Positions 5,853 to 26,317 of a DNA stretch of 36,228 nt are shown piece by piece. The notes beneath the pieces were generated by a model, which saw nothing but the letters and a program-made list of their open reading frames with translations, was not told the DNA's origin and did no database searches. This DNA comes from Candidatus Woesearchaeota archaeon (GTDB lineage Archaea > Nanobdellota > Nanobdellia > Woesearchaeales > JAGWAF01). The stretch lies in the NCBI GenBank assembly GCA_016211165.1, contig JACQSU010000003.1, positions 1 through 36,228 of the forward strand, given 5' to 3'. Made by a program: the position numbers and the translations under genes. Numbering within the stretch: the stretch's first letter is position 1; every line of letters starts with the position of its first letter.

Positions 5853-5928
5853 TCTGAATCCCGCCGACCCGTCAGTGGTGGCAGGATTTCGATGATGAGG
5901 GTACTTATAGGTGTTCACGACCGTAGAA

Positions 5929-5945
5929 CCGCCAGCTGCGGCGGG
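5929..5945. promoter_or_regulatory. 17-nt GC-rich motif CCGCCAGCTGCGGCGGG next to a TATA-like element (identical copy at 36002-36018)
   Basis: Exact 17-mer shared by two loci. In both it lies 5-8 nt downstream (minus strand) of a TATA-like element, ATAAAAG or CTATAATT, of a minus-strand gene. It can form a CCGCC/GGCGG hairpin. Confidence 0.4.
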
Positions 5946-8074: not shown

Positions 8075-9055
8075 ATGAAGGAACAAGTTCGGGTGAATTC
8101 GGCGCATCCCGCACTCACAAAAGATGTTGTCTTTGAGACAACGCATGCAGTTGTGAGTTCATTTCAAAAACTCCGTCCATATCTTGGTCGTCGATGGGAC
8201 GTCATCGGCAAGGATGATGGCGTGGATATGAAGTCCCAGTTTGATCAGCCCTTAGAAGAAGCTGTGAAGGCTCGTCTCGAAAAAACAACTGGTATTCCCT
8301 GTGTTGGTGAAGAGCTTGGTGGCGATCTTGCCGCAAAGCTGCGCTTTGATGTTGACATTATCGACGGCACGCCTAATGCTGGCGATGAGATGGACTGTTG
8401 GGGAATGATCACCAGTCTTAATGATAATGTGACTGGTCTTGTCACTGCGGCATATCTTCCGAAAAGGGGTGAGTTCTATCTTGCTGTGAAAGGCATGGGC
8501 GCGTATATGTTTGACTTGTCTCATGATCATGTTGATGCAACATCGGAAGGTCTCGCTAAGAAGATTGTCGATACACTCTTTACTGAACCGAACCCGTCTC
8601 TCCTAACTGCAACTCGACTGCAAGTCCATAGTATGAGACATCTTCCTCCTAAAGAGGGCGAAAAAAAGTACCAACCATTCAAGAGATTCCATGTTTCAGA
8701 AGATCTTGGTTATGAAGGCAGGGATTGGAAACTGCGCATGATTGCAAACTATGCTAACGACGTAAAGTATATGCCTATCTTCGGTTCGATCTTGTACAGT
8801 CTTTGCATGATTGCAAAGGGAAATCTCCAAGGCCACATAGCATTTGACGTGGGACGTAATGACACGAATCACTTTGCATTGATGCAAGAGTCAGGAATGG
8901 TGTTCTCAAATGGTAAGGGTGATCCATTCACCATGGATTCGAGAACACTTGTAGTAGCCAATTGCGAGGAGTTCCGAAAGTTCCTTGTTGAGCGGATTAA
9001 CCAGCCGTTTGATCCGCTTTATATTGTGCCTCAAAATGGCAAGTACTGGTATTAA
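8075..9055 (+). CDS. inositol monophosphatase / FBPase / CysQ superfamily phosphatase-like protein
   Basis: 326 aa. CVGEELGG...FDVDIIDGTPNAGDEMDCWGMITSL corresponds to the EE...DP(I/L)DGT metal-binding motifs. C-terminal ...IAKGNLQGHIAF...ALMQESGMVFSNGKGDPF fits the fold, with the WD motif changed to ND. Confidence 0.7.
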   Translation: MKEQVRVNSAHPALTKDVVFETTHAVVSSFQKLRPYLGRRWDVIGKDDGVDMKSQFDQPLEEAVKARLEKTTGIPCVGEELGGDLAAKLRFDVDIIDGTPNAGDEMDCWGMITSLNDNVTGLVTAAYLPKRGEFYLAVKGMGAYMFDLSHDHVDATSEGLAKKIVDTLFTEPNPSLLTATRLQVHSMRHLPPKEGEKKYQPFKRFHVSEDLGYEGRDWKLRMIANYANDVKYMPIFGSILYSLCMIAKGNLQGHIAFDVGRNDTNHFALMQESGMVFSNGKGDPFTMDSRTLVVANCEEFRKFLVERINQPFDPLYIVPQNGKYWY

Positions 9056-13790: not shown

Positions 13791-14023
13791 GGGTCTTGGC
13801 TGGTATATAAGGATTTAAGGGTTTCGCAAGATTGGGGACGCCCACAAGCGAGTGCTGTATATGCGCTCGGCGGCGGCTCCGCAGAGTCCCTAGGAATCTT
13901 TTCGTCTCCTATTTTTTTTATCTTAATCGATGAACATTGTTTTATGTATCTCTAATCCATAACGCATTAGTTATACCACTCCACAACGTTCCTAAAGGCA
14001 CAAAACGCCTTGGAGGTGTCGGT

Positions 14024-14194
14024 ATGGAGTGGTTCGAGGATGAAGACGAAGTTGGTGCATGGCATCATGAAGAACTGCGCTTGCGCTTGCGTGAGGAGCT
14101 TCTTAATGAATGGGAGCTTGGATATCTCGATGCGTACAAAAGAAGATGCGCCGGTGCGGGACGCAACAAAGGATTGTGTCATGAATTTTGTTGA
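14024..14194 (+). CDS. small acidic protein (56 aa) ending in Cys, unknown function
   Basis: Strong GGAGGTG 6 nt upstream of ATG 14024. MEWFEDEDEVGAWHHEELRLRLREELL...CAGAGRNKGLCHEFC-stop. Confidence 0.35.
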   Translation: MEWFEDEDEVGAWHHEELRLRLREELLNEWELGYLDAYKRRCAGAGRNKGLCHEFC

Positions 14195-14209
14195 AACTCC
14201 GTAAGACAG

Positions 14210-14262
14210 TTATAGCAAGTTGAGTTAATGTTGGAACTTTTGCGTCGGACTGTCACGAAGTG
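14210..14262. repeat. 53-bp repeat (second copy at 36027-36079)
   Basis: TTATAGCAAGTTGAGTTAATGTTGGAACTTTTGCGTCGGACTGTCACGAAGTG against TTATAGCAAATTGAGTTAATATTAGAACTTTGGTGTCTGGCTGTCGCGAAGCG, 44/53 identical by my count. Confidence 0.75.
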
Positions 14263-14267
14263 CATCT

Positions 14268-14316
14268 CGACTCAACTTGGACGCAAAAGTTCATATAATT
14301 CGTCAACTGCCTATAA
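14268..14316. repeat. short variant of the 65-bp repeat family
   Basis: CGACTCAACTTG...GTTCATATA...TCAACTGCCTATAA shares the blocks CGACTCAACTTG, GTTCATATA and TCAACTG(G/C)CTATAA, in the same order, with the copies at 2072 and 35279. Confidence 0.6.
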
Positions 14317-14329
14317 TTGATAGTGTTAA

Positions 14330-14462
14330 TGTGACTGTAAAAGTGGGGCGCAGCCCCTCTTTTCATATAATGCCAAGGATACGTCATGGTCTTGCGCCCG
14401 GCGCAAGACCTGACGAGGAGCACGGCGGAAGGGGTTCAAAATGGGGCCGTGCCCCCTTTTTT
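14330..14462 (+). ncRNA. candidate small structured RNA (speculative)
   Basis: A promoter-like TCAACTGCCTATAATT (14303-14318) is followed by three strong hairpins: GGGGCGCAGCCCC, GGTCTTGCGC-CCG-GCGCAAGACC at 14388-14410, and GGGGCCGTGCCCCC plus T6. No ORF with a start codon or SD. The hairpins may instead simply be terminators for the convergent gltX. Confidence 0.2.
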
Positions 14463-16156
14463 CATTTGTGCGTGTACACAAATATGTACACATTCCCTTG
14501 TTTTCCTTCAAATCGTGCGAAGTAGTGTCTCTCAAATTGCACGATCTGTCCTGGCTTGATACTGGCAAGATGTCGTTCGCCCTTTCCTTTTTGCACGGTT
14601 CCATCATTCATCAGGACTTCGACATCAAGGTTCTCCGGTGATGCAGGCAGCCAGTGCATGATGCGGCCACCGAGTTTGCGGTATGTTGCCACATCAGAGC
14701 TGTGGAATCGATAGGCGTGTGCCTCACTGGTGAAATTGAGTCCTTCCATGAGTCGATAGACTTGTCCGGTAGGGAGGGCGGCAAGATCCTCTGCTTGCAA
14801 CAAGAACGTGCCTTCGGCGGATAATTTCCTTCCGCCTTTGCGATGTTCAGGGTGCAAGTCGAATTCAGCATACACCGCAGGCGCGTCAAGGACCGTGACT
14901 TCTTTGGGGTCAATGACAAGGAAGTATCGATTGGCATCTGCTTCGATGAGTTGCCGATTGTGGTATTCAAGCGATTTGAAAAATTCCTTCACGTCCACGT
15001 GTTTGTCAGTCAAAGAGATCCCCATTCCTATGACGAATCGTCGAAACGCTTCTGCCTGGAATCCGCGTCTGCGAAGTGCCCCTATCGTGGGCAGGCGGAC
15101 ATCGTTCCATCCGTCGTATGTCCCTGCCGTGATTGCGGCCTTGGTTTCCGTGGTCGAGAGGCGTAGTCCATCGAATTGGATGCGTCCATAGTGGATATAT
15201 TCAGGAGTTTTCCATCCGAGGTAGTCAAAGATGTACTTCTGTCGTCTGGTGTTGTCAAAATGATCCTTGCCGCGCAAGACATGGGTTAGGCCCATCGAGT
15301 AGTCATCGGCAGCGACCGAGAAGTTCATCAGTGGCCAGACGCGGTATTTGTTCCCCTGCCGCGGGTGTTCAGTCTCGTTGATGCGCAGGATGGCGAAGTC
15401 CCGCATTGCAGGGTTCTTGTGCGCGACATCGGTTTTAAGGCGTACAACTGCTGCTCCTTCAGGGTATTCTCCTGTGTGCATCTTATGCCAATCTTCGATA
15501 TTGGACTTCGCAGACTTGTCGCGGCACGGGCAGGGTGATCCTTCTTCAATGAGGTTCTTCCACGCCTCACCTTCGCATGTGCAGACGTAGGCGTGATGCT
15601 CTTCAAGCAGTGCAAGGGCGGTTTGATAGTAGAGTTCCATCCGTTCTGATTGTATGAACACTTCGTTAAGATTATTCTGCGAGAGCCATCGCGTGTCGTC
15701 CTCGATCATCTTGTATGCTTCGGGCATGACATTGTCCTGGTTGGTGTCTTCAAGGCGCAGGATGAATGCTCCGCCGTACATCTTGACATATTCAGCGTTG
15801 GGGATGATGGTGAATGCGTGGCCGATGTGAAGTGGTCCGGAGGGTGATGGCGCCGCGCGCATCCGGACCGGCCCGCTCACATTCGGTAGCGGCTTGAGCA
15901 CGTCTTTTTTTGCGCCTTCTTTTTTCTCGAGAAGATCAGGCGCTTCAGAAGCAAGAATGCGCACGCATTCATCTGCTCCGAGTGTGTTGATCTCTATGAC
16001 AACAGGCGCAATCTTCACCATCAGTTCTTTTGCTTTGGGTTTGAGTTCAGGGTTCTCGCCAAGGATTCTCGAAAGGACGGAGTCTGCTTGGGCTACGCCA
16101 TTGTGGAGTGCCGCGTTTTGGAGTGTGAAGAGTCGGATGAGTTTGGCAAGGGTCAT
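14462..16156 (-). CDS. gltX: glutamyl-tRNA synthetase, archaeal type
   Basis: PSGPLHIGHA (HIGH motif) and a class I catalytic core. The N-terminal helical domain LIRLFTLQNAALHNGVAQADSVLSRILGENPELKPKAKEL is typical of archaeal GluRS. The likely start is MTLAKL at 16156; the track ORF extends to 16189. Confidence 0.92.
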   Translation of the reverse strand: MTLAKLIRLFTLQNAALHNGVAQADSVLSRILGENPELKPKAKELMVKIAPVVIEINTLGADECVRILASEAPDLLEKKEGAKKDVLKPLPNVSGPVRMRAAPSPSGPLHIGHAFTIIPNAEYVKMYGGAFILRLEDTNQDNVMPEAYKMIEDDTRWLSQNNLNEVFIQSERMELYYQTALALLEEHHAYVCTCEGEAWKNLIEEGSPCPCRDKSAKSNIEDWHKMHTGEYPEGAAVVRLKTDVAHKNPAMRDFAILRINETEHPRQGNKYRVWPLMNFSVAADDYSMGLTHVLRGKDHFDNTRRQKYIFDYLGWKTPEYIHYGRIQFDGLRLSTTETKAAITAGTYDGWNDVRLPTIGALRRRGFQAEAFRRFVIGMGISLTDKHVDVKEFFKSLEYHNRQLIEADANRYFLVIDPKEVTVLDAPAVYAEFDLHPEHRKGGRKLSAEGTFLLQAEDLAALPTGQVYRLMEGLNFTSEAHAYRFHSSDVATYRKLGGRIMHWLPASPENLDVEVLMNDGTVQKGKGERHLASIKPGQIVQFERHYFARFEGKQGNVYIFVYTHK

Positions 16157-16204
16157 AGTCTCACGCAGAAGGGAGCTTGTTATATACATTGTGGTGGAGT
16201 GATA

Positions 16205-16957
16205 TTAGAATCGTCCGATCGTGGCCAGGCGATAAGAATTCAAGTGCTGTTTGGCTTTACGGATATGTTTGTTAGATCCCTGCCTGCGTGCTGCGTACTG
16301 ATCTGCTGTTCGTTCCTCACGATCAAGTTCTCGTTCAAGTCCGAACCAGGCGACAGGTGAAATGAGCGCGGCGTGTCGTGAGAGTGCAAGCATGCTCGAT
16401 TTTTGTGCGATATGACCAATCTCATGAAGAAGCACGGCTTCGGTTTCCTTTTTGGACAAAAGATCCATCAGTCCTACCGATACGAAGATGCGTGGTGTGC
16501 CAAGTGAGAAGCTAAACGCGATGGGTTTGGCAGTGTCAATCACGTGTAGGGCAGGTGAAGTGATCCGAGCGTCCAGTGCAGCAGAGGCGACAAATCGTGC
16601 GAGCGATCCGTTCTCAAGGCGTCGTGAGCGTTGTGCCATCCTTCGCACAAAGACAAATGGCGCGCATAGCAAGCTTACCAGGATGCTGATTCCTGAAGTG
16701 ATGATCGCAAGCCATATAGTGTGTCGTGCAGTCTCACACGAATCCAACATCGCGGCGCATCCGCCGTATGTTCCATACAACACCACGGGAAAGAGCAGAA
16801 AGAAGACGTGCAAGTACAGAGCTCCGAGTTTTGTCTTGGTGGCCTTGCTTCCAAAGAATGCCGCAAGGGCAAGCAATGCAAACACAAGCGATCCGATGGA
16901 GAGCCATAATTTGAGTGGATCTGTGACAAAGCTTTGCACGCATTCCCCGCACATCAT
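16205..16957 (-). CDS. BlaR1/MecR1-like M56-family membrane metalloprotease (sensor-transducer) without an extracellular sensor domain
   Basis: 250 aa with 4 predicted TM segments and an HEXXH site, AVLLHEIGHIAQ. N-terminal MMCGEC (CxxC) and GGCAAMLDSC. ATGA overlap with the blaI-like gene. Confidence 0.75.
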   Translation of the reverse strand: MMCGECVQSFVTDPLKLWLSIGSLVFALLALAAFFGSKATKTKLGALYLHVFFLLFPVVLYGTYGGCAAMLDSCETARHTIWLAIITSGISILVSLLCAPFVFVRRMAQRSRRLENGSLARFVASAALDARITSPALHVIDTAKPIAFSFSLGTPRIFVSVGLMDLLSKKETEAVLLHEIGHIAQKSSMLALSRHAALISPVAWFGLERELDREERTADQYAARRQGSNKHIRKAKQHLNSYRLATIGRF

Positions 16958-17313
16958 TTGCGAAACCTCTCGTGGAAGTAACTTACGGCTGTGGATCCAA
17001 ATCGATTAATGAGGCCATTCACGACGTCCTCGACAACAGACTTCTCAAATTCCTTCCGGTTCTTGGTTGGGAAGTAGATATAGCGCACGCCTCCGCGTGC
17101 AGTCTCCATGTTCCGCTCGACGAGTCCTTTGAGAAAGAGACGGTCCAAGATGACAGCGACGGAGCTGACTGCGACGTTGCGTTTTCCTTTGAGTTTTGCG
17201 TGTATCTCTCGGACGCGCAGCGACTTGTCCGGCCATAGTATCGAGATGACATCGTTCTCCAGTGGTGAGAGGATATCGCTATTGGATTTCACCGCACGCA
17301 CTGCGTCTTTCAT
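16954..17313 (-). CDS. BlaI/MecI/CopY-family winged-helix repressor
   Basis: 119 aa. LSPLENDVISILWPDKSLRVREIHAKL...VAVSSVAVILDRLFLKGLVER is typical of Penicillinase_R. There is no C-terminal CxC metal motif, so it is BlaI-like rather than CopY-like. AGGAGGG Shine-Dalgarno. Confidence 0.8.
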   Translation of the reverse strand: MKDAVRAVKSNSDILSPLENDVISILWPDKSLRVREIHAKLKGKRNVAVSSVAVILDRLFLKGLVERNMETARGGVRYIYFPTKNRKEFEKSVVEDVVNGLINRFGSTAVSYFHERFRK

Positions 17314-17345
17314 GTGATCCCTCCTAACGCTATTCTATAAATATC

Positions 17346-17360
17346 TTACGAAGATTGTAA
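17346..17360. promoter_or_regulatory. TTAC-N7-GTAA dyad (candidate BlaI-type operator) at the blaI-like promoter
   Basis: TTACGAAGATTGTAA, directly adjacent to the TATA-like TTCTATAAATAT (17333-17344). The flanking 12-mer AAAGCATTACAA (minus strand) is identical to 19273-19284. Confidence 0.45.
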
Positions 17361-17365
17361 TGCTT

Positions 17366-18094
17366 TTATCGGTGTTCAAGATATTCTTTGTCAAGCAATC
17401 CTCTGCGAACCCAGTCCTGCATCACAGAGTCATCTAGCGCAGGTTCAGGAGTCACGATCGCAGGATATTTACCACGCTCGATTGTCGACAGATTCCGCGC
17501 CAGGACATCAAGTGTTGTTGCTTTGAATTGGTCTTCCGGAGTCATCACAAGTCCATACCGTTCAAGAAAGCCATCGATTGTGTGGAGATGCTGCTCTTTT
17601 TTGTCAGGCTCGATCGTGATGTGGTAGACTTCAAGGATGTATCCGAATGATGCGGCGCCGCCCCACATATGCTGTATGCTGCTAATCAATTCTGTGCCAA
17701 TGTGTTTTGCATGGTGCTTGGTGACGCGCTTTGCCCACCAGGGATCGGGGTGGATGCCAAGGTCTTCGATGGCGCAGGCAATGTATTGTGCATAGTGAGC
17801 ATCGATCACTCGCGGATCCCTCACGCGCATATTGGCGAAGATGTCGCCGTGCTCGCGTTTGTTGCTTAGCATCTCGTATGTATCCCACGTGTTGGGCTCG
17901 GGTCCCATCCAGCGGATTCGTAGGTCGCCATTGTTTTTGGCAAGTGATCCGAATCGATGCGTGAGGATATAGTAAGTGTCGATGCGCCGCCACTGCTGGT
18001 CCAATGCTGTAAGGAGGCGTTGGTACTGTGCAAGATTGAGACGCGCGCGGCGTTGGACTTGGTATTTCTTGTCCCTCATAGTTGTGTTTGTCAT
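17366..18094 (-). CDS. hypothetical protein, weakly CYTH-like
   Basis: The likely start is MTNTTM at 18094, with a CCTATATTC TATA-like box about 22 nt upstream. Patterns DTYY, LRIRW, AKRVTKHH and GYILEVY loosely follow CYTH strand motifs, but the ExExK position reads QVQRR. Confidence 0.55.
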   Translation of the reverse strand: MTNTTMRDKKYQVQRRARLNLAQYQRLLTALDQQWRRIDTYYILTHRFGSLAKNNGDLRIRWMGPEPNTWDTYEMLSNKREHGDIFANMRVRDPRVIDAHYAQYIACAIEDLGIHPDPWWAKRVTKHHAKHIGTELISSIQHMWGGAASFGYILEVYHITIEPDKKEQHLHTIDGFLERYGLVMTPEDQFKATTLDVLARNLSTIERGKYPAIVTPEPALDDSVMQDWVRRGLLDKEYLEHR

Positions 18095-18152
18095 AGTTTT
18101 GGGGAGACGAATATAGGCTCTTAATGGTTTCCATAACATTCTTAAAGATTAG

Positions 18153-18167
18153 TTACATCAGTTGTAA
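18153..18167. promoter_or_regulatory. TTAC-N7-GTAA dyad in the divergent region between the hypothetical gene and ccdA
   Basis: TTACATCAGTTGTAA (TTACA/TGTAA arms), 21 nt upstream of the ccdA ATG. Confidence 0.45.
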
Positions 18168-18187
18168 TACTTTGGCTTTGGTGGAAT

Positions 18188-19180
18188 ATGAATATGGATC
18201 TGAATAAGCTCATGCTTGTCTTGCTTGTGATTCTGGCTGTTGTAGTGGCATCCTCCCCAGTCCTTGCCTTGGAGCTTCCCACGTCGCTTCAGAACCTGCA
18301 GTCGCAAAATGAGCAGAACACCCAGCGATTTGTGGCAACCATTACGTTTTTTGTCGCATTTCTTGCTGGCATTATCAGCTTTGTGAGTCCGTGCATTCTC
18401 CCGGTCTTTCCTGCGTTCTTTGCGTATGCGTTTACAAAAAAGCGTGACTTGAAGAAAGCCACTCTTGCCTTCTCTGCCGGGATGATTGTGGTAATGGTCG
18501 CAATCGGTTTGCTTGCAGCATATGTTGGCCGTCTTCTCTTAGACGAGTACCGCGCGACTATTGTCTTTTATCTCGGATTCCTCTTTATTGGTCTTGGCAT
18601 GGTCATCGCCTTGGGCCGGACATTTGGTGTTGCATCACAAAGGAAAATCAAGATAGACTCATTATGGTCCATCGCAGGGTTTGGCGCGCTCTTTGGCATC
18701 GGCTTCACGCCGTGTATTGGCCCGATTTTTGGCGGCATTCTTGCGATTGCGATGGTGCTTGGTGACTATTTATGGTCCGGTCTCTTGTTCGCATTCTATG
18801 CGATAGGCATCTCATTTCCACTCTATTTCCTCTCTGTATATTATGACAAATGGGAGTTGCACAAAAGGCCCTGGATGCGCGGCAAGACTTTCACGATCAA
18901 TCTTGGCAAGAAACGCATTGAGACACATTCCCACAATCTGCTCTCGGGAGGCATCCTCATCTTCTTTGGATCCCTCTTCGTCTTGCACAATGGCACATTT
19001 CTCTTTAATGCGCTCAGTGGTGGATACTTGAGTCACTTGTGGTTTATGTATAATGACGCGCTTCTGCAAGGCAGTCCTGCGTGGTATTGGGCATCGCTTG
19101 TGGTCTTTGTTCTCGCCATACTCTTTGTGGCAAAATCGTTGAAGTCGTCCGGAGGGCGGCATTATAGCAAATCTCGTTGA
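18188..19180 (+). CDS. ccdA: CcdA/DsbD-family thiol:disulfide electron transporter
   Basis: 330 aa, polytopic. Both conserved Cys motifs are present: FVSPCILPVFPAF and FTPCIGPIFGGIL. Confidence 0.88.
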   Translation: MNMDLNKLMLVLLVILAVVVASSPVLALELPTSLQNLQSQNEQNTQRFVATITFFVAFLAGIISFVSPCILPVFPAFFAYAFTKKRDLKKATLAFSAGMIVVMVAIGLLAAYVGRLLLDEYRATIVFYLGFLFIGLGMVIALGRTFGVASQRKIKIDSLWSIAGFGALFGIGFTPCIGPIFGGILAIAMVLGDYLWSGLLFAFYAIGISFPLYFLSVYYDKWELHKRPWMRGKTFTINLGKKRIETHSHNLLSGGILIFFGSLFVLHNGTFLFNALSGGYLSHLWFMYNDALLQGSPAWYWASLVVFVLAILFVAKSLKSSGGRHYSKSR

Positions 19181-19185
19181 TTATG

Positions 19186-19255
19186 GAGGACTTTGAAAAG
19201 CTCGAGCGTAACGAGGGGTTATTCAAAGTTCTCAATTCGCTATTAAACGATTTTT
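19186..19255 (+). terminator. hairpin cassette after ccdA, related to 13473-13596
   Basis: GAGGACTTTGAAAA...TTCAAAGTTCTC, followed by ATTAAACGATTTTT. Confidence 0.5.
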
Positions 19256-19278
19256 CGTAAGGTATAAATACTAAAGCA

Positions 19279-19293
19279 TTACAAGATTCGTAA
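19279..19293. promoter_or_regulatory. TTAC-N7-GTAA dyad at the promoter of the MVGGC/Trx/CopA operon
   Basis: TTACAAGATTCGTAA, 8 nt downstream of GGTATAAATAC. A second TATA-like element, CTTTATATA, is at about 19318. Confidence 0.45.
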
Positions 19294-19372
19294 CAGTTTA
19301 GGCATCGTCGGGACAACCTTTATATACCGACGCCAAATGTCGAGAACAAGACAAGAGGGGTGAACTATCACA

Positions 19373-20104
19373 ATGGCAAAAAAGGAATCATCGGTTGAGT
19401 ACACATTCAATATTCCAACACTCGTCCTCATTGCGTTGTTTGCAGGAATCATCATATTCAACCAATACCAGATTATGACATTTGGTATAAGCGGCCCGGG
19501 CACATTCTCATTGTCAGGGCGAACAAACCTTGCGCTTCCACCCGGAAGCCAGGGGACGACACTGGGCCCGGTCTTTAATTCGGATGGCCGTACAACAAGT
19601 GTCAAGGAGCTCCCAACAATTTCTGCGACTCCTGATCCTGCTCCGAGCGGCGACCCTGTGCAAGACGCGATCAACAGATACGTCCCAACAGGAACACCAG
19701 AATACGGCGCTGCCTTGGGTGTCTCATTTGATGATCCAATCAATTCACTTAACAAGCTCGCGCGTTACGACCAGACTGAACAACTTGATACGCCAGAAGA
19801 GAAAGCTCGCTATGACAAGCTCGCGTATGGGTTTAGCTGTGACTTCTGTTGTGGAGGTCCGAATTCAGTGACGCACATCTCAAACTGTGGTTGCTCGCAC
19901 GCAGCTGCGTGGCGCGGTGTCTTCAAGTACTTTATCAAGAACAATCCAGAGTACACCGATGAACAGCTGATAGGCGAGGCGACTCGGTGGAAGACGCTTT
20001 GGTATCCAGGTCCTATGATGAAGCGGATCCTCTCTGAAGGATCAAGCGGGTCAGTGGACGCATCGACACTATCACAGCTCCCCGGCATGGTCGGCGGCTG
20101 CTAA
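19373..20104 (+). CDS. membrane-anchored extracytoplasmic Cys-cluster protein ending in LPGMVGGC
   Basis: 243 aa. N-terminal TM IPTLVLIALFAGIIIF. Cys cluster CDFCCGGPNSVTHISNCGCSH. The final residues are LPGMVGGC-stop. GAGGGGTGA Shine-Dalgarno. Confidence 0.7.
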   Translation: MAKKESSVEYTFNIPTLVLIALFAGIIIFNQYQIMTFGISGPGTFSLSGRTNLALPPGSQGTTLGPVFNSDGRTTSVKELPTISATPDPAPSGDPVQDAINRYVPTGTPEYGAALGVSFDDPINSLNKLARYDQTEQLDTPEEKARYDKLAYGFSCDFCCGGPNSVTHISNCGCSHAAAWRGVFKYFIKNNPEYTDEQLIGEATRWKTLWYPGPMMKRILSEGSSGSVDASTLSQLPGMVGGC

Positions 20105-20126
20105 GAGGGACGAAGTCCCTCTTTTT
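20103..20126. terminator. 9-bp hairpin plus T-run between the two MVGGC genes
   Basis: AAGAGGGAC-GAA-GTCCCTCTT followed by TTT. It overlaps the stop codon of the upstream gene. Confidence 0.4.
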
Positions 20127-20139
20127 GGAGGAATCAAAA

Positions 20140-20361
20140 ATGGAAAAGAACACGATTGTCGCGGTCGTTCTGGGCGTGCTTGTCCTAGTTTCATTAGTGC
20201 AAGCATTCCAGCTCTACGGCCTTAAGAATTCAGTGTCCGGCGGGGCGACGGTTCGCCAAGTGTCAGCTGCGGCTCCACTAGCAAGCGCTCCTGCATCGTC
20301 AGGTGCGCCTGCGCTTCCTGCGAGTCTGAACAACTTGCCAGAGATGGTCGGCGGCTGTTAG
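20140..20361 (+). CDS. small membrane-anchored protein ending in LPEMVGGC
   Basis: 73 aa from ATG 20140, with GGAGG 9 nt upstream. TM IVAVVLGVLVLVSLV, an Ala/Ser/Pro linker, then LPEMVGGC-stop. Confidence 0.65.
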   Translation: MEKNTIVAVVLGVLVLVSLVQAFQLYGLKNSVSGGATVRQVSAAAPLASAPASSGAPALPASLNNLPEMVGGC

Positions 20362-20424: not shown

Positions 20425-21546
20425 ATGAAGTCCAATGTCGATCACCGATTGATGATTAACACGCTCTTGCTTGTGCTCACGTTCTTTGTGCTCCTCAATT
20501 TGTTCCTGACCTATGATCTTCGTCAGGAAGTCGCCGAGCGCGTCCGCTTGGATGCGCTTTCCCGTGTTCCTCCGATGATGGAGCTTGTTGTGATCTCTGA
20601 TGATTCCTGTGTCGATTGCTTTAATATCTCTCCTGTGGTTTCCCAGATAAAGGCGATGAATGTAAATCTCACCAAGGAGTCTGTGCTTCAATATGGTTCC
20701 GATGAAGCGAGGGCGCAAATCGAGAAGTATAGTGTACAAAGTATTCCTTCAGTCATCCTTCTGGGCGCTCCGGAGACATTTTCATTAAGCGGATTCAAGC
20801 GCACGAAAGATGCTCTAATCCTAAGCGAAGTGCGTCCAATCTACATCGACGCGACGACAGGTCAAGCAAAAGGGCGCCTTGAGATGACGCTCATTAACGA
20901 TCCATCCTGCAAGGGTTGTTTTAACATCGGCATCGTTGCAGGTCAGATCAAGCGGTTGACCTCGGTGCGCCAAGAGATTACGCTCTCATCTGCGAGTGCG
21001 CAAGCAAAGAAGCTCATCGCCAAGTACAATATCACGAAGTTGCCGGCGCTTATCTTAAGCGAAGACACGTCGGTGTATGCTGCCATTGCAAGTGAGTGGG
21101 CCAATGTGGGCACGGTTGAATCCGATGGGATGTATGTCCTGCGCGAACTTCCGCCGCCCTATGTTGATGTCGCAACAGGTCAAGTCGTGGGGCGTGTGAG
21201 TGTAACATATCTCACAGATGTGTCGTGCAAGGCGTGTTATGATGTTTCCATTCACAAGGCTGTGCTTGCGCAATTGGGCATTGCTCCTGCCATCGAGTCA
21301 AGGATGGATGTTGCAAGTGCGCAAGGTAAGATGCTGGTCGCGAAGTATGGAATCGAGTCTGTTCCAACAGTGATCCTTAGTAGGGACGCTAAGGCCTTTG
21401 ACGTTATGAGCTCTGTGTGGGAGCAAGTGGGTACCATCGAGTCCGATGGCAGCTATGTATTCCGCAATCTAGGCGCCATCGGTGGCGTGACGTATCACAA
21501 TCTGTCCAGTGGCGCTGTACAAAACGCGACCCTGCCGCAGCAGTGA
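20425..21546 (+). CDS. membrane-anchored protein with three tandem thioredoxin-fold CxxC repeats
   Basis: N-terminal TM, then three units of about 110 aa, each with D-x-S-C-x-x-C (CVDC, CKGC, CKAC) and a (K/E)KY(S/N/G)(V/I)xx(I/L/V)P(S/A/T)(V/L)IL cis-Pro-like block. Confidence 0.8.
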   Translation: MKSNVDHRLMINTLLLVLTFFVLLNLFLTYDLRQEVAERVRLDALSRVPPMMELVVISDDSCVDCFNISPVVSQIKAMNVNLTKESVLQYGSDEARAQIEKYSVQSIPSVILLGAPETFSLSGFKRTKDALILSEVRPIYIDATTGQAKGRLEMTLINDPSCKGCFNIGIVAGQIKRLTSVRQEITLSSASAQAKKLIAKYNITKLPALILSEDTSVYAAIASEWANVGTVESDGMYVLRELPPPYVDVATGQVVGRVSVTYLTDVSCKACYDVSIHKAVLAQLGIAPAIESRMDVASAQGKMLVAKYGIESVPTVILSRDAKAFDVMSSVWEQVGTIESDGSYVFRNLGAIGGVTYHNLSSGAVQNATLPQQ

Positions 21547-21580
21547 AGTAGAGGGATTGGCCCTCCTGGTGGTGACGAAT

Positions 21581-21610
21581 GGGGGTTCAAAAGGGGGTTT
21601 CCCCCTTTTC
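21581..21610. repeat. G4-hairpin element (family copy)
   Basis: GGGGGTTCAAAAGGGGGTTTCCCCCTTTTC, between two same-strand genes of the operon. Confidence 0.75.
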
Positions 21611-21617
21611 AAGAGTG

Positions 21618-22001
21618 ATGGTGGCGATCCTTGTATGGGTCGCTGTGCTTGCCAGTCTGTATGCCGTCATCGGCATTGATGATACGGATCGGCAGAACTG
21701 CCCGTACAAATCTGGTGGCAATCCCAATGCGTCACTGCGCATTGCCTACTTTGGGAATCCATTCTGCATTTGGTGTCTCATTCTTGAGCCCAAGCTTGAG
21801 CGTCTTGTTGAGCAAAAGGGGCGGTCGTTTTATATCCAGTATTTTGATGATAGGTATTGTGTGAATGAGGCAGAGGCCTTTGGCGTGCAGGCAGTGCCGT
21901 TTTTTGTGTTTAACAAGAGTGGTGTGATCACGCCGCATGCAGGGTATATTGAAGAGAGTGATATGCGCAGTATTATTTGTCAAGAGACAGGTGATTGTTA
22001 A
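21618..22001 (+). CDS. membrane-anchored thioredoxin-like protein (CIWC)
   Basis: Start taken at MVAILVWVAVLASLYAV, because the track start at 21579 would put the hairpin repeat inside the coding region. FGNPFCIWC...VQAVPFFVF Trx fold. Ends ...QETGDC-stop. TAATG overlap with the next gene. Confidence 0.7.
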   Translation: MVAILVWVAVLASLYAVIGIDDTDRQNCPYKSGGNPNASLRIAYFGNPFCIWCLILEPKLERLVEQKGRSFYIQYFDDRYCVNEAEAFGVQAVPFFVFNKSGVITPHAGYIEESDMRSIICQETGDC

Positions 22002-22648
22002 TGACAGGCAAGACTACGGATATCATGATGATGGCCGTCCTCGTGGTGCTCGTGGTTATGCTGTCCGCAGGCGCGGTCTTTATTGATGATCTGATTCCCT
22101 CACCATCCTTGCCAAAGGCAAGCGCCAAAGTTGATCCGTCGCTGGCACGGGTTTCGTTCGGGTCCAATCCTAATGCCTCCGTGCATATGCTCGTCTTTGG
22201 TGATTATGAATGTGCAAATACAAAGGTAGATTGGGAGATGATCAAGCGTATTCGATCTGATTATGGTAAAAAGATCAATCTTGTGTGGGTGCACACGCCG
22301 CTGGATGTTCATCCTCATTCTCAAGCAGCGGCGCGTGCCGTTGTCTGTGCGCAGGCGCAAGGCAAGTTCTGGGAGTTTAGTGATGTGCTCTTTGCGAATC
22401 AGGATCGTCTTGATGATGGCGCGCTTTTAGAGTATGCGGCAAGGATCGGTCTTGATCAGACAGTGTTCCGCTCCTGCTTCTACTCTTCACGTGCAGAGAA
22501 CAAGGTGCGTGATGATCTTGTCTTTGCTCTTGGTCATGGCATCCGCGGCACGCCGACGTACGTGATTAGTGGCCGATGGTTTGAGGGTGTGCAGGATGAG
22601 GGGTTCTTGCGAGGGGTCTTGGATTCTGCTGTGGAGGCAGGACAATGA
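22001..22648 (+). CDS. DsbA/BdbD-like thioredoxin-fold protein with the active site changed to C-A-N-T
   Basis: VFGDYECANTKV occupies the position where the family has DxxCPxC. HPHSQAAARAVVCAQAQGKFWEF and GIRGTPTYVISG match the DsbA-like family. N-terminal TM anchor. Confidence 0.8.
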   Translation: MTGKTTDIMMMAVLVVLVVMLSAGAVFIDDLIPSPSLPKASAKVDPSLARVSFGSNPNASVHMLVFGDYECANTKVDWEMIKRIRSDYGKKINLVWVHTPLDVHPHSQAAARAVVCAQAQGKFWEFSDVLFANQDRLDDGALLEYAARIGLDQTVFRSCFYSSRAENKVRDDLVFALGHGIRGTPTYVISGRWFEGVQDEGFLRGVLDSAVEAGQ

Positions 22649-23409
22649 ATCTCGCGCAAGTCGCTTTGAGGGGTGCGCGGTTGAGTGATCCGTTTTCTTT
22701 GTGGAGGCCGATTGTGGGTGATGTGGGTTTTTTGTTTGCGCTTGGTTTTGTTGGCGGTGCGATTGGTAAGAAGATAGAGGCAGTGCTAATCGCAGCAGGG
22801 GCGTCCATTGCAAGGCAGAGTCAGGGTACGGATGCGGTGGTGCTTACAGCGATGGATAAGTCACTTCTATGGCAGGCATTGGGTTTGCATCTGGTGCTAG
22901 TGCTTGTGATCTATGTTCTGTTTTGCGCGTTTGCAAGTATTGGCTGGTGGTGGGCGGTGAATAGAAAGGGTGTCATCACTATGTCGCTTTATGTGCGCAG
23001 GTTCTTTGGAGTGCATGCCCTATTGATTCCTCTGGGGGTTATCGTCGATGCATTGGGATTTTGGGCAGAGCATCAGAGGCTTGCAGAGCCAGCATCGATG
23101 ATGACGACTCTTTTTATAGGCGGCTATAGTGCCGGTTTGCTTATGCTGGGGATTGTTTCGGTAATCGCTTCTGTGAGGATCTTGCGCAGTGCTGCGTGGA
23201 TAGCGTGGAAGGAGGCTGTTGTCTTGCTCTGTTCTCCACGCAAGTCGCTTGTTCCAGTGGGGCTTATTGTGTTGGGATTCGGGATCATCAATGCAGGTAT
23301 ATGGCTGGCTTCTGCCCTTGATCCTCGCTTTGGCATTGTGGTTGGTATTGGTGTTTTATTTCCTTATCTTGCATTCACTCGACTCTTTCTCGTGGAGGTG
23401 TTTGGATGA
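22645..23409 (+). CDS. polytopic membrane protein, unknown family
   Basis: 254 aa with about 6 hydrophobic segments. ATGA overlaps at both ends. I recognise no motif. Confidence 0.6.
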   Translation: MNLAQVALRGARLSDPFSLWRPIVGDVGFLFALGFVGGAIGKKIEAVLIAAGASIARQSQGTDAVVLTAMDKSLLWQALGLHLVLVLVIYVLFCAFASIGWWWAVNRKGVITMSLYVRRFFGVHALLIPLGVIVDALGFWAEHQRLAEPASMMTTLFIGGYSAGLLMLGIVSVIASVRILRSAAWIAWKEAVVLLCSPRKSLVPVGLIVLGFGIINAGIWLASALDPRFGIVVGIGVLFPYLAFTRLFLVEVFG

Positions 23410-24104
23410 ATCCTGGCAAACTCATGGTCGGCGTCCTCATTCATGCAATTCTTATTGTCATTCTTGCGCTTATCGGGTCGGCGTCAGTCACTGCGTGGCA
23501 GTCGTTCTTTGGTGGCGTTCTGCCCCAGGATCTGGTCAGTAGGCTGTGGATGATCGTGTTTGTCACCGTGGTGTTCTTTGTGCCGCAGTGGTTTGCGTTT
23601 TCAACAGTATCCTATGTCGCGATTTCCTACCTGTCCTATGGCGTGTGGTGGCGTCGCGGCTCGTACGTTCGTTTCCTAAAGACGCACGCGTGGTTTCTTC
23701 TCTTGTTGATGGGATCCTTCATCCTGTGGGATGTGCTTGGTGGGTATGTGCGTGAGTCCTCGGTAATCATCTGGGGCTTTGTTGGAATCGCGGCCTTGGG
23801 TGTGATCTATCTGTATCTGCATCATCGTCGATTGCGTCATTTCGTTGATGTCGCGCACAAGGAATGTGTCTGTATTCGGAAGGCGGTTCCCTGGATCGCC
23901 CTGCACTGGACTGGTGGAATCGTTGCACTTTCGCTCATTGCATTTGTCCTTCCGATAAAGGAATCCTGGCTTGAGATGTTGGTTGTGAGCGGTGTGTTTG
24001 GCGCTGTGTTGACTTTGGATACAGAGCGCTTTCGGGTTGTGATGCAGACGCATGATATGAAAGGGTCGGAGCGCGTTTCGCACACGGCGAGGGGCAGAAG
24101 ATAA
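23406..24104 (+). CDS. polytopic membrane protein, unknown family (CVC motif)
   Basis: 232 aa with about 6 hydrophobic segments. Loop HKECVCIRK. ATGA overlap with the upstream gene. copA starts 30 nt downstream. Confidence 0.6.
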   Translation: MNPGKLMVGVLIHAILIVILALIGSASVTAWQSFFGGVLPQDLVSRLWMIVFVTVVFFVPQWFAFSTVSYVAISYLSYGVWWRRGSYVRFLKTHAWFLLLLMGSFILWDVLGGYVRESSVIIWGFVGIAALGVIYLYLHHRRLRHFVDVAHKECVCIRKAVPWIALHWTGGIVALSLIAFVLPIKESWLEMLVVSGVFGAVLTLDTERFRVVMQTHDMKGSERVSHTARGRR

Positions 24105-24133
24105 GTAATATATAGGATGCGGAGAGTCTTACG

Positions 24134-26317
24134 ATGATGAAGAAAACGTCGATTAAGATTACAGGTATGCATTGTGCAAGTTGCGCTGGTAAAATCGAGA
24201 AGGCGCTCAAGGCAAAGCCCGGAGTTGTCGTGGCATCGGTGAATTTCGGCACCGAGACTGCGCAAGTCGAGCATGATGTGATTAAGAGTAGTGTGCAGGA
24301 TCTCATTGAGGCGATCAAGGCGCAGGGATATGGTGCTTTTGGACAGGGTGAGCCTGGTCATGCAGAGTCTATGAATCATGAAACGCATGATGGGCAGGAT
24401 CTAAAAATCAAGCTTCTTGTCTCGATCCTTCTGACATTGCCCATTGTCTTGTGGACGATGACGCCTGTGGTGTATCCTCTCCCATTTGCAAAGGAGTGGG
24501 TGTTGTTAGTCCTCGCGACTCCTGTGGTCTTGTGGGGTGGCTCCTTTCTCTTTGTGAACACTGTAAAGGCGATTCGTCGGATGTCTGCTGATATGGACAC
24601 GCTTATCGCGATCGGTGTCGGCGCCGCCTACCTATATAGTGTTGCGACAACAGTGGGTCTTGTTGCAGGTCCCCAGTTCTTTGAGACTGCGTCGGCTTTG
24701 GTGTGTTTTATCATTTTGGGCAGGGTTCTTGAGGCGCGGGCGCGTGGAAAGACTAAGCAGTCATTGCAAAAGCTTGTTGAGCTTGCGCCAAAGGAGGCGA
24801 CGGTGTTCCGGGATGGTAGACAAATCAAGATTCCGGTTAAGGACATCATTGTAGGTGATTTGGTGATTGTCAAGCCTGGTGAGAAGATTCCCGTGGATGG
24901 TATCGTTTCAAAAGGTCATTCATCTGTGGATGAGTCGATGATTTCTGGTGAGAGCATTCCAATTGAGAAAAAGCCAGGGGATGCTGTGATTGGTTCGACC
25001 ATCAACAAGTCAGGATCCTTTGCATTCACTGCGCAGAAGGTGGGTAAGGATACCGTGCTTGCGCAGATAATCAGGATGGTTGAGGAGGCCATGTCAAGTA
25101 AGCCGTCAGTCCAGCGACTTGCTGACAAGGTCTCATCGATCTTTGTCCCAGTAGTCTTAGTCCTTGCCATTCTCACATTCCTGTTTTGGTATTACATAGC
25201 TGCGATGGGTTTTGTCTTTGCGCTCACGCTTGCGATCACGACGCTTGTCATTGCGTGTCCATGCGCATTAGGGCTTGCGACGCCGACTGCTGTGATGGTA
25301 GGTACTGGTGTTGGCGCCGAGCATGGTATTTTGATCAAGTCAGGTGATGCGCTTGAGAATGTGGGCAAGCTCACGACGATTGTGCTTGATAAGACAGGCA
25401 CGCTTACTCTTGGCAAGCCGGAAGTGACGGATGTAATCGAGCTCGCATCAAAGCGTGAGGACATTCTTAAGTTTGCGGCGATTGGTGAGGTTAAGTCAGA
25501 GCATCCTTTGGCTGATGCGATTGTGCAGGCGGCAAAGTTGGATAATATTGTGATTCCTGAAGCGACCTTTTTCCGCAATCACGAAGGCCTTGGGATCGAG
25601 GCGTCCTGGCGTGGCAAGCATGTGCTTGTTGGCAATCTCCGTTTGATGAAACAGCATCGTATTCCCACTGACGATTCCTTGGAGCGTCTTGAAGCTCTTG
25701 AGTCCGAGGGCAAGACCGTGATGTGTGTTGCGATTGAGAATAAGCTTGCTGGTCTCGTCGCTGTGGCTGATGTGCTCAAGGCTGATGCAAAGGCCGCTGT
25801 TGATGGGCTTACGTCCTTGGGTCTTGGAGTGATGATGCTTACTGGTGATAATGAGCGTGTCGCGAATGGCATTGCGAAAAAGGCAGGCATTGATTCCGTG
25901 ATCGCGCAGGTGCTTCCAAAAGACAAGCTTGAGAAGATCAGGGAGTTGCAAGCGCAGGGCAAGCGTGTGGCAATGGTTGGTGATGGGGTCAATGATGCTC
26001 CAGCTCTGACGCAGGCTGATGTGGGAATTGCCATTGGCGGGGGGACGGATATCGCAAGGGAATCAGGGGACATTGTGCTTATCAAGAGTAATGTGAATGA
26101 TGTCGTGATGGCAATCAAGCTCTCGCGGCTGACCTTGCGCAAGATTTATCAGAATCTGTATTGGGCCTTTGGGTATAATGTGATTGGCATTCCTGTGGCA
26201 ATGGGTGTGCTGTACCCTGTGGGTATCCTGCTTCCTGCCGAGGCCGCTGGTCTTGCGATGGCTCTCTCGAGCGTCAGCGTTGTGACGAATAGTTTACGTA
26301 TTAGGAAGTTTGCCTGA
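24134..26317 (+). CDS. copA: copper-translocating P1B-type ATPase
   Basis: 727 aa. N-terminal HMA domain GMHCASC, TM6 CPC ([11 protein letters not shown]), DKTGTLT, MLTGDN and [10 protein letters not shown]. Confidence 0.95.

Follow-up and report, generated by a model that had tools for sequence, protein, structure and literature searches.

Three copies of an inverted repeat, TTAC-N7-GTAA, stand at three neighboring promoters in a 36,228-bp stretch of DNA from a Candidatus Woesearchaeota archaeon (contig JACQSU010000003.1, positions 1 to 36,228; hereafter the window, by which we mean the whole stretch analyzed). We put at roughly 0.75 the probability that these dyads are operators of the adjacent 119-aa winged-helix repressor of the BlaI/MecI/CopY family, encoded by the blaI-like gene (blaI below). 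The sites are non-random, and their position, spacing and target genes are conserved across ~80 species.

Three dyads at neighboring promoters

Both strands of the window were scanned exhaustively for TTAC-N7-GTAA. Exactly three copies were found, all of them intergenic, all within 2 kb, and each beside a TATA box. Dinucleotide-preserving shuffles of the window contain 0.17 copies on average and 1 at most, and none of 100 shuffles reaches three. A preliminary description of this DNA had located the three 15-mers at these coordinates, had expected such a dyad well under once by chance in 36 kb, and had proposed the exhaustive scan as a check; all of this held, with no further match and none in coding regions. 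The distances it gave to the TATA-like elements and to the start of ccdA are likewise correct on the sequence. The sites are as follows, the cores coming from the exact-pattern scan and the scores from a motif matrix built on orthologous loci.

17346-17360: O1 core dyad, TTACGAAGATTGTAA
17346..17366, minus strand: O1 operator with flank, AAAGCATTACAATCTTCGTAA, at the blaI-like gene; dyad start at -47 from the ATG; 23.2 bits
18153-18167: O2 core dyad, TTACATCAGTTGTAA
18153..18173, minus strand: O2 operator with flank, AAAGTATTACAACTGATGTAA, in the divergent region between ccdA and a 257-aa gene; 19.3 bits
19279-19293: O3 core dyad, TTACAAGATTCGTAA
19273..19293, plus strand: O3 operator with flank, AAAGCATTACAAGATTCGTAA, ahead of the MVGGC/Trx/.../CopA operon; 24.0 bits

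Aligning sites 1 and 2 (minus strand) with site 3 (plus strand) yields a longer asymmetric consensus, AAAG[C/T]ATTACAA-N4-[C/T]GTAA. The 12-mer AAAGCATTACAA, already reported in the preliminary description, is indeed common to site 1 (minus strand) and site 3. O1 lies 5 nt past the stop codon of the 257-aa gene and is the predicted autoregulatory site of blaI, and O2 ends 20 nt before the ccdA ATG (18188). In the closest relative (locus L001, repressor 71% identical), O2 is also present, between ccdA and the homologue of the 257-aa gene, and the block TATAAATACTAAAGCATTACA at O3 is 100% identical to that of the window.

O3, O1 and O2 are also the top three matrix sites of the window. The next-best site, at 11.8 bits, falls inside the null range (null maxima average 11.1 bits, 95th percentile 15.3). 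Allowing one mismatch in the exact pattern adds two unrelated sites, at 8845 and 14326, for a total of five against 5.9 expected, which is background. Further operators in the window, such as one at the copper ATPase gene CopA, were rejected because neither the one-mismatch nor the matrix scan returned anything above null. As the matrix finds just three sites, CopA could be controlled only via read-through from O3.

Conservation of the dyad across related loci

The exact pattern, fixed beforehand from the window alone, was searched in 80 loci from different GTDB species of DPANN archaea, 774 kb in total, each oriented on its repressor gene. The repressors of these loci are 50-72% identical to that of the window, and gene starts and open reading frames (ORFs) were called crudely. 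The loci contain 126 exact dyads against ~17 expected, a seven-fold enrichment that belongs to a single spacing: N7 gives 126 matches and every other spacing from 0 to 15 gives 2-18. The bacterial spacing, TTAC-N4-GTAA, was rejected, as its 10 matches, none of them in the window, are background.

The position of the dyad is as constrained as its spacing. In loci with a placeable blaI start, 78 of 120 dyads lie within 200 nt upstream of that start, and 61 of 75 loci have at least one exact dyad within 160 nt. In 43 of the 75 the dyad starts 41-50 nt upstream of the blaI ATG, the usual position being -47, just as found in the window. Aligned, the blaI-proximal sites read AAgCnTTACAa-N4-CGTAA-AgT-ATTTAWAg, followed by ~22 unconserved nt and the ATG; loci that lack the exact pattern carry one-mismatch variants at the equivalent place. 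The symmetrized motif is aAaGCtTTACA-N5-TGTAAaGCtTt, with an extended half-site AAAGC-n-TTACA. At a threshold of at least 16 bits, 145 of 160 sites fall outside ORFs, although ORFs make up 84% of the DNA. The L001 locus has the same three-site layout as the window, and its intergenic DNA can be aligned with that of the window only at islands formed by the operators and TATA boxes. The comparison of orthologous promoters, which the preliminary description had recommended, thus came out strongly positive in copy number, in spacing and in position.

GTAA-N4-TTAC is mildly raised in the same loci (21 matches) because of one sub-clade variant. In that sub-clade (L005, L010, L020, L023, L035, L041, L051 and L056), TTGTAA-AGCT-TTACAA is found ~40-60 nt upstream of blaI, with a degenerate AGAAA half-site after it, ahead of the blaI TATA box. 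On sequence, this arrangement may represent overlapping or tandem operators.

A metagenome-scale scan for AAGCNTTACANNNNNTGTAA gave, among the 120 matches listed, mostly AT-rich background (median GC 0.40); the listed loci include no BlaI-family ORF and one unrelated P-type ATPase match. One listed contig stands apart (L124, SAMEA3663179__coassemble_7152), with three close TTACAAASTTTGTAA dyads at the contig end (2080-2157) in DNA of 59% GC and no BlaI-family ORF in its 2.2 kb.

Putative target genes

The genes around the three sites are listed here and, for the most part, taken up again below.

16205..16957, minus strand: membrane zinc protease gene of the M48/M56 type (M48 below), 250 aa, HEIGH motif; overlaps blaI by 4 nt
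16954..17313, minus strand: blaI-like repressor gene, 119 aa, Penicillinase_R
17366..18139, minus strand: 257-aa orphan gene, possible O2 target; probable true start at ATG 18094 (or 18079)
18188..19180, plus strand: ccdA, DsbD_TM thiol-disulfide transporter (PF02683, E 8.6e-12), possible O2 target
19373-20104 and 20125-20361, plus strand: MVGGC243 and MVGGC78, membrane-anchored proteins that both end in LPxMVGGC
20425..26317, plus strand: rest of the putative operon, with a triple thioredoxin-fold protein, thioredoxin (Trx), DsbA, two membrane proteins and CopA
24134-26317, plus strand: CopA, copper P-type ATPase (TIGR01511, E 3.7e-186)

Across the related loci, operators were assigned to target genes by two tests, one counting matrix sites of at least 14 bits within 200 nt upstream and the other counting exact dyads within 250 nt upstream. 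The blaI gene has a site in 70 of 73 loci by matrix and in 63 of 79 by exact pattern, and MVGGC243 in 49 of 55 and 25 of 43, respectively. The matrix result for MVGGC243 holds when this gene is more than 450 nt away from blaI (24 of 28 with a site) and when it is near (25 of 27). Three other conserved genes have no upstream site by either test: M48 (0 of 67 loci), Trx373 (0 of 40 by matrix, 0 of 45 exact), and the glutamyl-tRNA synthetase gene GluRS (0 of 22 and 0 of 16). ORFs of no named family more than 450 nt from blaI carry a site in 21 of 580 cases, at least some of which are extra target families.

Gene order is conserved to a similar degree. Among the 80 loci, M48 follows blaI immediately in 74, and MVGGC243 is found in 54, CcdA in 47, triple-Trx in 46, and MVGGC78 in 39. 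Where present, ccdA lies inside or next to operator-controlled operons or has its own site, and is usually within such an operon; in the window and L001 it stands alone with its own site. CopA or CopZ is near the system in 7 of 80 loci, and in one of these (L074) a dyad directly precedes CopZ-CopA. Sites also recur at genes for a His-rich lipoprotein that weakly matches YtkA (12 loci), for CcdA where it has a site to itself (9), for a membrane protein with CHxLC (6), for an HWH...C protein (3), and for TlpA-type redoxins (2). These extra targets point to copper and thiol chemistry.

On this footprint, the conserved core of the predicted regulon is blaI-M48 together with the MVGGC243/MVGGC78/Trx operon. 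The putative BlaI-type regulon of the preliminary description is therefore supported, with adjustments to its membership: ccdA usually belongs to these operons, CopA is linked in just 7 of 80 loci, and the 257-aa gene recurs in one other locus.

Promoter architecture at the putative operators

Because the host is a DPANN archaeon, the TATA-like elements of the preliminary description are to be read as archaeal TATA boxes. The elements of the three promoters are as follows.

17336..17343, minus strand: TATA box of the blaI-M48 operon, TATAAATA (minus strand TATTTATA), 2 nt from site 1; as positioned in the ortholog consensus, TATA starts 4 nt past the dyad core
18140..18149, strand of use either: TATA-like element TCTTAAAGAT, 3 nt from O2, a reading of the letters only
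19261-19271, plus strand: GGTATAAATAC, with TATA box 1 (TATAAATA) at 19263..19270; the O3 core begins 8 nt downstream
19319..19326, plus strand: TATA box 2, TTTATATA, 25 nt past O3 and 46 nt short of the ATG; kept in L001 and ~20 other loci

Two placements of the operator recur across loci. At blaI, the dyad comes first and the TATA box follows after 4 nt (in 41 sites its start is at +19 relative to that of the dyad), and the 3' half-site GTAA occupies the position of the transcription factor B recognition element (BRE). In a small sample of 20 promoters, the generic promoters of these genomes combine a TATA box, located at -31 to -29, with an A-rich BRE-like element, G[A/C]AA, and have no dyad. 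The blaI ATG of the window lies ~22 nt downstream of its TATA box, a distance from which a leaderless blaI-M48 transcript is expected. MVGGC243 promoters have the reverse arrangement, with 6-10 nt between the TATA box and a dyad that follows it, and here the site falls over the predicted transcription start; in the window, the start predicted from TATA box 1 falls inside O3. Many loci use a TTTCA-N5-TGTAA variant at their MVGGC243 promoters. In ~20 loci including the window, TATA box 2 follows ~20 nt further downstream and is uncovered by the operator, which suggests a tandem second promoter, with the operator overlapping only the first. At O2, the plus strand reads TCTTAAAGAT and then O2 toward ccdA, and the minus strand O2 and then TCTTAAAGAT toward the 257-aa gene; the element could, from its sequence, serve either gene or both.

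A further arrangement is found in L004, L007, L016, L024 and similar loci (about 5913-5938), where 8 nt separate the blaI operator from the start of a divergent gene, which encodes a His-rich lipoprotein with HxDHxHPE and ExEHxHDE motifs and weak similarity to YtkA. This gene appears to share a quasi-palindromic TATA box with blaI, an arrangement that would imply bidirectional leaderless transcription from one TATA-plus-operator unit.

The repressor

The 119-aa protein is a Penicillinase_R protein by Pfam (PF03965, 57.9 bits against a cut-off of 22.6, E 1.5e-15), which bears out the earlier label of BlaI-like. More than 160 homologues with 53-87% identity were found, nearly all from DPANN archaea, the named ones being almost all Woesearchaeota, Nanoarchaeia and Nanoarchaeota, and PF03965 is present in all 120 that were listed. 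ALSSVAVILDRL, the putative recognition helix, hardly varies within the clade, from which a conserved operator would be predicted, and the alignment also shows a conserved SYFNERF segment. The AlphaFold2 model (predicted local distance difference test score, pLDDT, 74.9) has helices at residues 17-26, 34-41, 49-61 and 86-117, the last of them preceded by a beta-hairpin wing (65-82). It is thus a winged helix with a long C-terminal helix, including the N-terminal winged helix-turn-helix characteristic of the family. The top Foldseek matches are the DNA complexes of BlaI (1xsd) and MecI (1sax), 1okr, and Rv1846c (2g9w), with TM-scores of about 0.55. HMMER alignments stop at residue 65 with Staphylococcus aureus BlaI and at residue 86 with Mycobacterium tuberculosis Rv1846c.

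The best NCBIfam match is TIGR02698 (CopY_TcrY), at 34 bits against a cut-off of 122. No cysteine is present in the 119-aa protein or in an alignment of 27 sequences, and the CopY mechanism, with its CxC metal site, is thereby excluded. The BlaI/MecI/CopY analogy drawn in the preliminary description accordingly stands for the BlaI family and falls for a CopY-type metal sensor.

The partner protease

The gene overlapping blaI encodes a protein that matches Peptidase_M48 above the cut-off (36.9 bits) and Peptidase_M56 below it (24.1 bits against 31). HExxH (here HEIGH), EExxAD and a pair of cysteines are conserved in 67 orthologues, which range from 190 to 294 aa. No penicillin-binding sensor domain was detected (no PF00905 match), and the protein ends ~45 residues past the protease motifs. 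Hydropathy and the positive-inside rule predict three clear transmembrane (TM) segments, with the protease domain on the cytoplasmic side and the pair C67-X6-C74 in an outward-facing TM2-TM3 loop (residues 63-80). A CGEC motif at the start of the window protein is not conserved.

In bacteria, BlaR1 cleaves BlaI directly and signals via its extracellular TM2-TM3 loop and helix 3 (PMC9834060), and sensor-less BlaR homologues paired with BlaI are the commonest architecture (PMC13492132). By analogy, the Cys-X6-Cys loop, at the position of BlaR1 extracellular loop 1 (EL1), is a candidate built-in sensor. Combined with the thiol-disulfide and copper targets, the cysteine pair suggests a thiol-reactive envelope signal.

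Proposed model and alternatives

In the model that we infer for the binding protein, for repression, for release by proteolysis and for the signal, a repressor dimer probably recognizes two AAAGC-n-TTACA half-sites arranged as TTACA-N5-TGTAA. With O1 lying over the BRE position and directly next to the TATA box, a bound repressor should exclude transcription factor B (TFB) and TATA-binding protein (TBP), which would give negative autoregulation of blaI-M48. The MVGGC243 site, and probably that of ccdA, comes after the TATA box and before the predicted start, where binding would block recruitment of RNA polymerase. The resulting regulon would be small and local, comprising blaI-M48, MVGGC243-MVGGC78-Trx-(DsbA...CopA), and ccdA and/or the 257-aa gene. 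An envelope signal, probably a thiol-reactive one such as copper or disulfide stress, would lead the M48/M56 protease to cleave the repressor, as in BlaI/BlaR.

Several observations weigh against this model. The dyad center at blaI is ~42 bp upstream of the predicted transcription start, and some archaeal regulators activate from about that distance. The operator spacing is 3 bp wider than that of the characterized BlaI/MecI/CopY operators, and the modeled C-terminal domain is one long helix and not the BlaI/MecI helical bundle. The recognition helix and its counterpart in S. aureus BlaI have different residues despite similar half-sites, and the common TACA could therefore be partly coincidental. 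TATA box 2 (19319-19326), being downstream of O3, would escape occlusion. S. aureus BlaI is cleaved at Asn101-Phe102 in its C-terminal domain; this N-F site is unalignable in the archaeal repressor, so that proteolytic release enters the model as an analogy. The loci scored with the motif matrix are also those that went into it, leaving the exact-pattern tests as the fully independent ones, and, on the 120 metagenome matches listed, the 14-nt motif alone does not predict targets in genomes that lack this regulator.

The main rival is a position-dependent regulator that would activate at O1 by recruiting TFB, giving positive autoregulation, and repress at MVGGC243. Position-dependent behavior has been described for the archaeal regulators SurR and TrmBL1, and the two distinct conserved placements (dyad-4 nt-TATA at blaI, TATA-6-10 nt-dyad at MVGGC243) and the ~42-bp distance at blaI are what such a regulator would show. 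We nevertheless hold dual function to be unlikely. The GTAA half-site sits exactly at the generic G[A/C]AA BRE-like position, where competition between a bound winged helix and TFB is to be expected; in loci of the L004 type, the site lies between a common TATA box and the divergent gene, which is a repressing position; and all characterized BlaI-family members autorepress (PMC8457756). It is considerably less probable that another DNA-binding protein binds the dyads or that they are a general promoter-proximal element, a notion that draws on the overlap of the 3' half-site with the BRE-like position. The motif is absent from the other promoters of the window and is found at just 21 of the 580 distant ORFs of no named family, whereas it tracks blaI at a fixed distance in at least 43 species. 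Moreover, blaI is the sole regulator gene conserved in the loci, and the half-site agrees with the known one of its family (PMC1935004).

As inverted repeats, one of which lies just past the stop codon of the 257-aa gene, the dyads might instead act as RNA hairpins (terminator, attenuator or processing signal). We regard this as very improbable: the predicted hairpins, at -1.3 to -4.3 kcal/mol, are weak and do not surpass those of shuffled sequence (z -1.5 to +0.5), and they have no Rfam or tRNA match; the blaI dyad, upstream of its TATA box, would be outside the blaI transcript; and what is conserved is the sequence (TTACA/TGTAA and the AAAGC flanks), not compensatory pairing. The least probable alternative is a chance cluster of an AT-rich pattern that specifies eight nucleotides. 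The pattern is short, and even its 14-nt version gives many background matches at metagenome scale, but the shuffles, the seven-fold enrichment at one spacing in 80 independent loci and the fixed distance to the start codon refute chance.

The operator-repressor assignment can be extended to a reading of wider scope, which we offer tentatively, as it is rather less likely to be right than wrong. Bacterial-type regulated proteolysis would operate on archaeal promoters throughout DPANN (Woesearchaeota/Nanoarchaeia, Aenigmatarchaeota and Micrarchaeota). The sensor-less protease would sense copper or disulfide stress directly through its Cys-X6-Cys loop and cleave a cysteine-free repressor that competes with TFB/TBP, thereby switching on an envelope thiol/copper system headed by the LPxMVGGC proteins; the wider operator would reflect the geometry of a single-helix dimer.

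Comparison with characterized systems

The closest parallels are BlaI/BlaR1 and MecI/MecR1 of S. aureus and Bacillus licheniformis. In both cases, a Penicillinase_R repressor is followed in one operon by an HExxH membrane zinc protease, with one operator, putative in the archaeon, at the repressor's own promoter and another at a neighboring target promoter. As in those systems, TACA/TGTA half-sites are embedded in a longer imperfect dyad (PMC1935004), and the TM2-TM3 extracellular loop of the archaeal protease is found at the EL1 position of BlaR1 (PMC9834060). The differences are equally clear. The archaeal operator is TACA-N5-TGTA and the bacterial one TACA-N2-TGTA; the protease, at 250 aa, lacks the penicillin-binding sensor, and no beta-lactamase or penicillin-binding protein is among the targets; the C-terminal region of the repressor is shorter and modeled as a single long helix; the promoters are of the BRE/TATA type; and the sequence similarity is weak (E 1e-4 to 1e-5).

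The centers of the bla, mec and cop operators are TACA-N2-TGTA (PMC1935004, PMC7253601). For CopY/CopR of Enterococcus, Lactococcus and Streptococcus, the cop box is TACANNTGTA, refined to RNYKACANNYGTMRNY. The bacterial half-site also has an extended form, AAAGTATTACA; the papers confirm TACANNTGTA alone. The comparison with the cop box (TACAnnTGTA) made in the preliminary description is thus apt for the TACA/TGTA half-site and fails for the spacing, which is N5 here, the bacterial spacing being at background. CopY/CopR and the archaeal system have in common the protein family, the half-site, and a CopA gene that belongs to the regulated operon or lies close to it, as seen in the window and in 7 of 80 loci. 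They differ in that the CxCx4CxC Cu/Zn site by which CopY is defined (PMC11672702) is missing from the archaeal repressor, its half-sites stand 3 bp further apart, it has a protease as partner, and the conserved targets are thiol-disulfide and MVGGC genes, not copZ/copA.

BlaI/BlaR of M. tuberculosis (Rv1846c/Rv1845c) and CenIR of Clostridioides difficile pair a transpeptidase-less BlaR with a BlaI-like repressor and control a small envelope regulon unrelated to beta-lactamase (PMC13492132). Rv1846c is also the best match of the archaeal repressor by sequence in the PDB (2g9w, E 7.7e-6, 29% identity in the fold alignment). Unlike the archaeal system, these are bacterial, with sigma-factor promoters and regulons of ATP synthase and cell division or of Cwp6 and CDR_0474. 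BlaI_0696 and BlaI_1845 of Clostridium thermocellum, characterized by DNA affinity purification sequencing (DAP-seq), resemble what is predicted for the archaeal repressor: they are autoregulated, with very small regulons and inverted repeats, often two dyads per target, of hexamers 5 nt apart (PMC8457756). Their half-site is GTCTAT/GACTAT and not TTACA, and they too are bacterial; their sites indicate that half-site and spacing vary within the family.

On the archaeal side, repressors such as MDR1, LrpA, Phr and those of the TrmB type occlude BRE/TATA or the transcription start, and the operators described here similarly lie over BRE/TATA or between TATA and the start. Those regulators come from other families and respond to effectors that they bind directly; we know of none that is released by a partner membrane protease. 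No characterization of an archaeal BlaI/CopY protein was found in the searchable literature. On these comparisons, the system would work like BlaI/BlaR and is neither CopY, for want of the metal motif, nor canonical beta-lactam BlaI/BlaR1, as it has no sensor, no resistance target and a wider operator.

DPANN archaea are uncultivated or barely cultivated and have tiny genomes with few regulators, and to our knowledge no regulon has been experimentally defined for them. The present data offer a concrete and testable regulator-operator pairing for this group, with a 21-27-bp motif of fixed spacing, two placements relative to TATA and defined targets in several DPANN phyla. They would also place a DPANN-restricted family of cysteine-rich proteins, annotated as hypothetical, in the physiology of thiol-disulfide and copper handling at the envelope. 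The category of mechanism is itself not new, as the BlaI/BlaR design was recently recognized as a general bacterial envelope-sensing module (PMC13492132); what is added is the proposed extension of this regulated-proteolysis design to archaeal transcription machinery, and the wider half-site spacing provides a handle on dimer geometry in the repressor family.

Other genes and observations

MVGGC243, the conserved first gene of the regulated operon and the most conserved operator target, encodes a CxxCCG...CGCxH motif. Its family comprises 239 homologues, from DPANN only, all annotated as hypothetical and with no Pfam domain. Searches of MVGGC243, MVGGC78 and the two membrane proteins encoded at 22645-24104 against Pfam and NCBIfam returned nothing significant. 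Co-transcription of the genes at 20425..26317 is suggested by gene spacing alone (gaps of -7 to 63 nt). The domain matches in the gene list confirm the identities previously given to ccdA and CopA.

The first ATG of the 257-aa gene (18139) is separated from the dyad by just 14 nt, and translation therefore probably begins at one of the two internal positions listed above. Of the 80 related loci, only L001 shares this gene with the window. The protein has no Pfam/NCBIfam match and no word-index homologue, and HMMER finds six relatives among 1.84 billion representative proteins. One of these, a distant relative, has a sub-threshold CYTH match (E 0.01), which leaves the earlier CYTH-like label unconfirmed. 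A single-sequence AlphaFold2 model was unusable (pLDDT 33.5).

Many of the source records (L001, L006, L007, L012, L015, L062 and others) bear the title "uncultured Methanosarcinales archaeon", "Candidatus Binatia bacterium" or simply "bacterium", probably through taxonomic mislabeling or mis-binned contigs.

Downstream of blaI-M48, on the same strand and after a 15-nt gap, the window encodes an archaeal-type GluRS (14462-16189), with no operator ahead of it; the same arrangement is found in 25 of 80 loci. The ~500 nt downstream of the GluRS gene (13956-14461) contain no convincing ORF and no tRNA or Rfam match. GC-rich hairpins followed by T runs are found at ~14344-14365 and 14443-14465.

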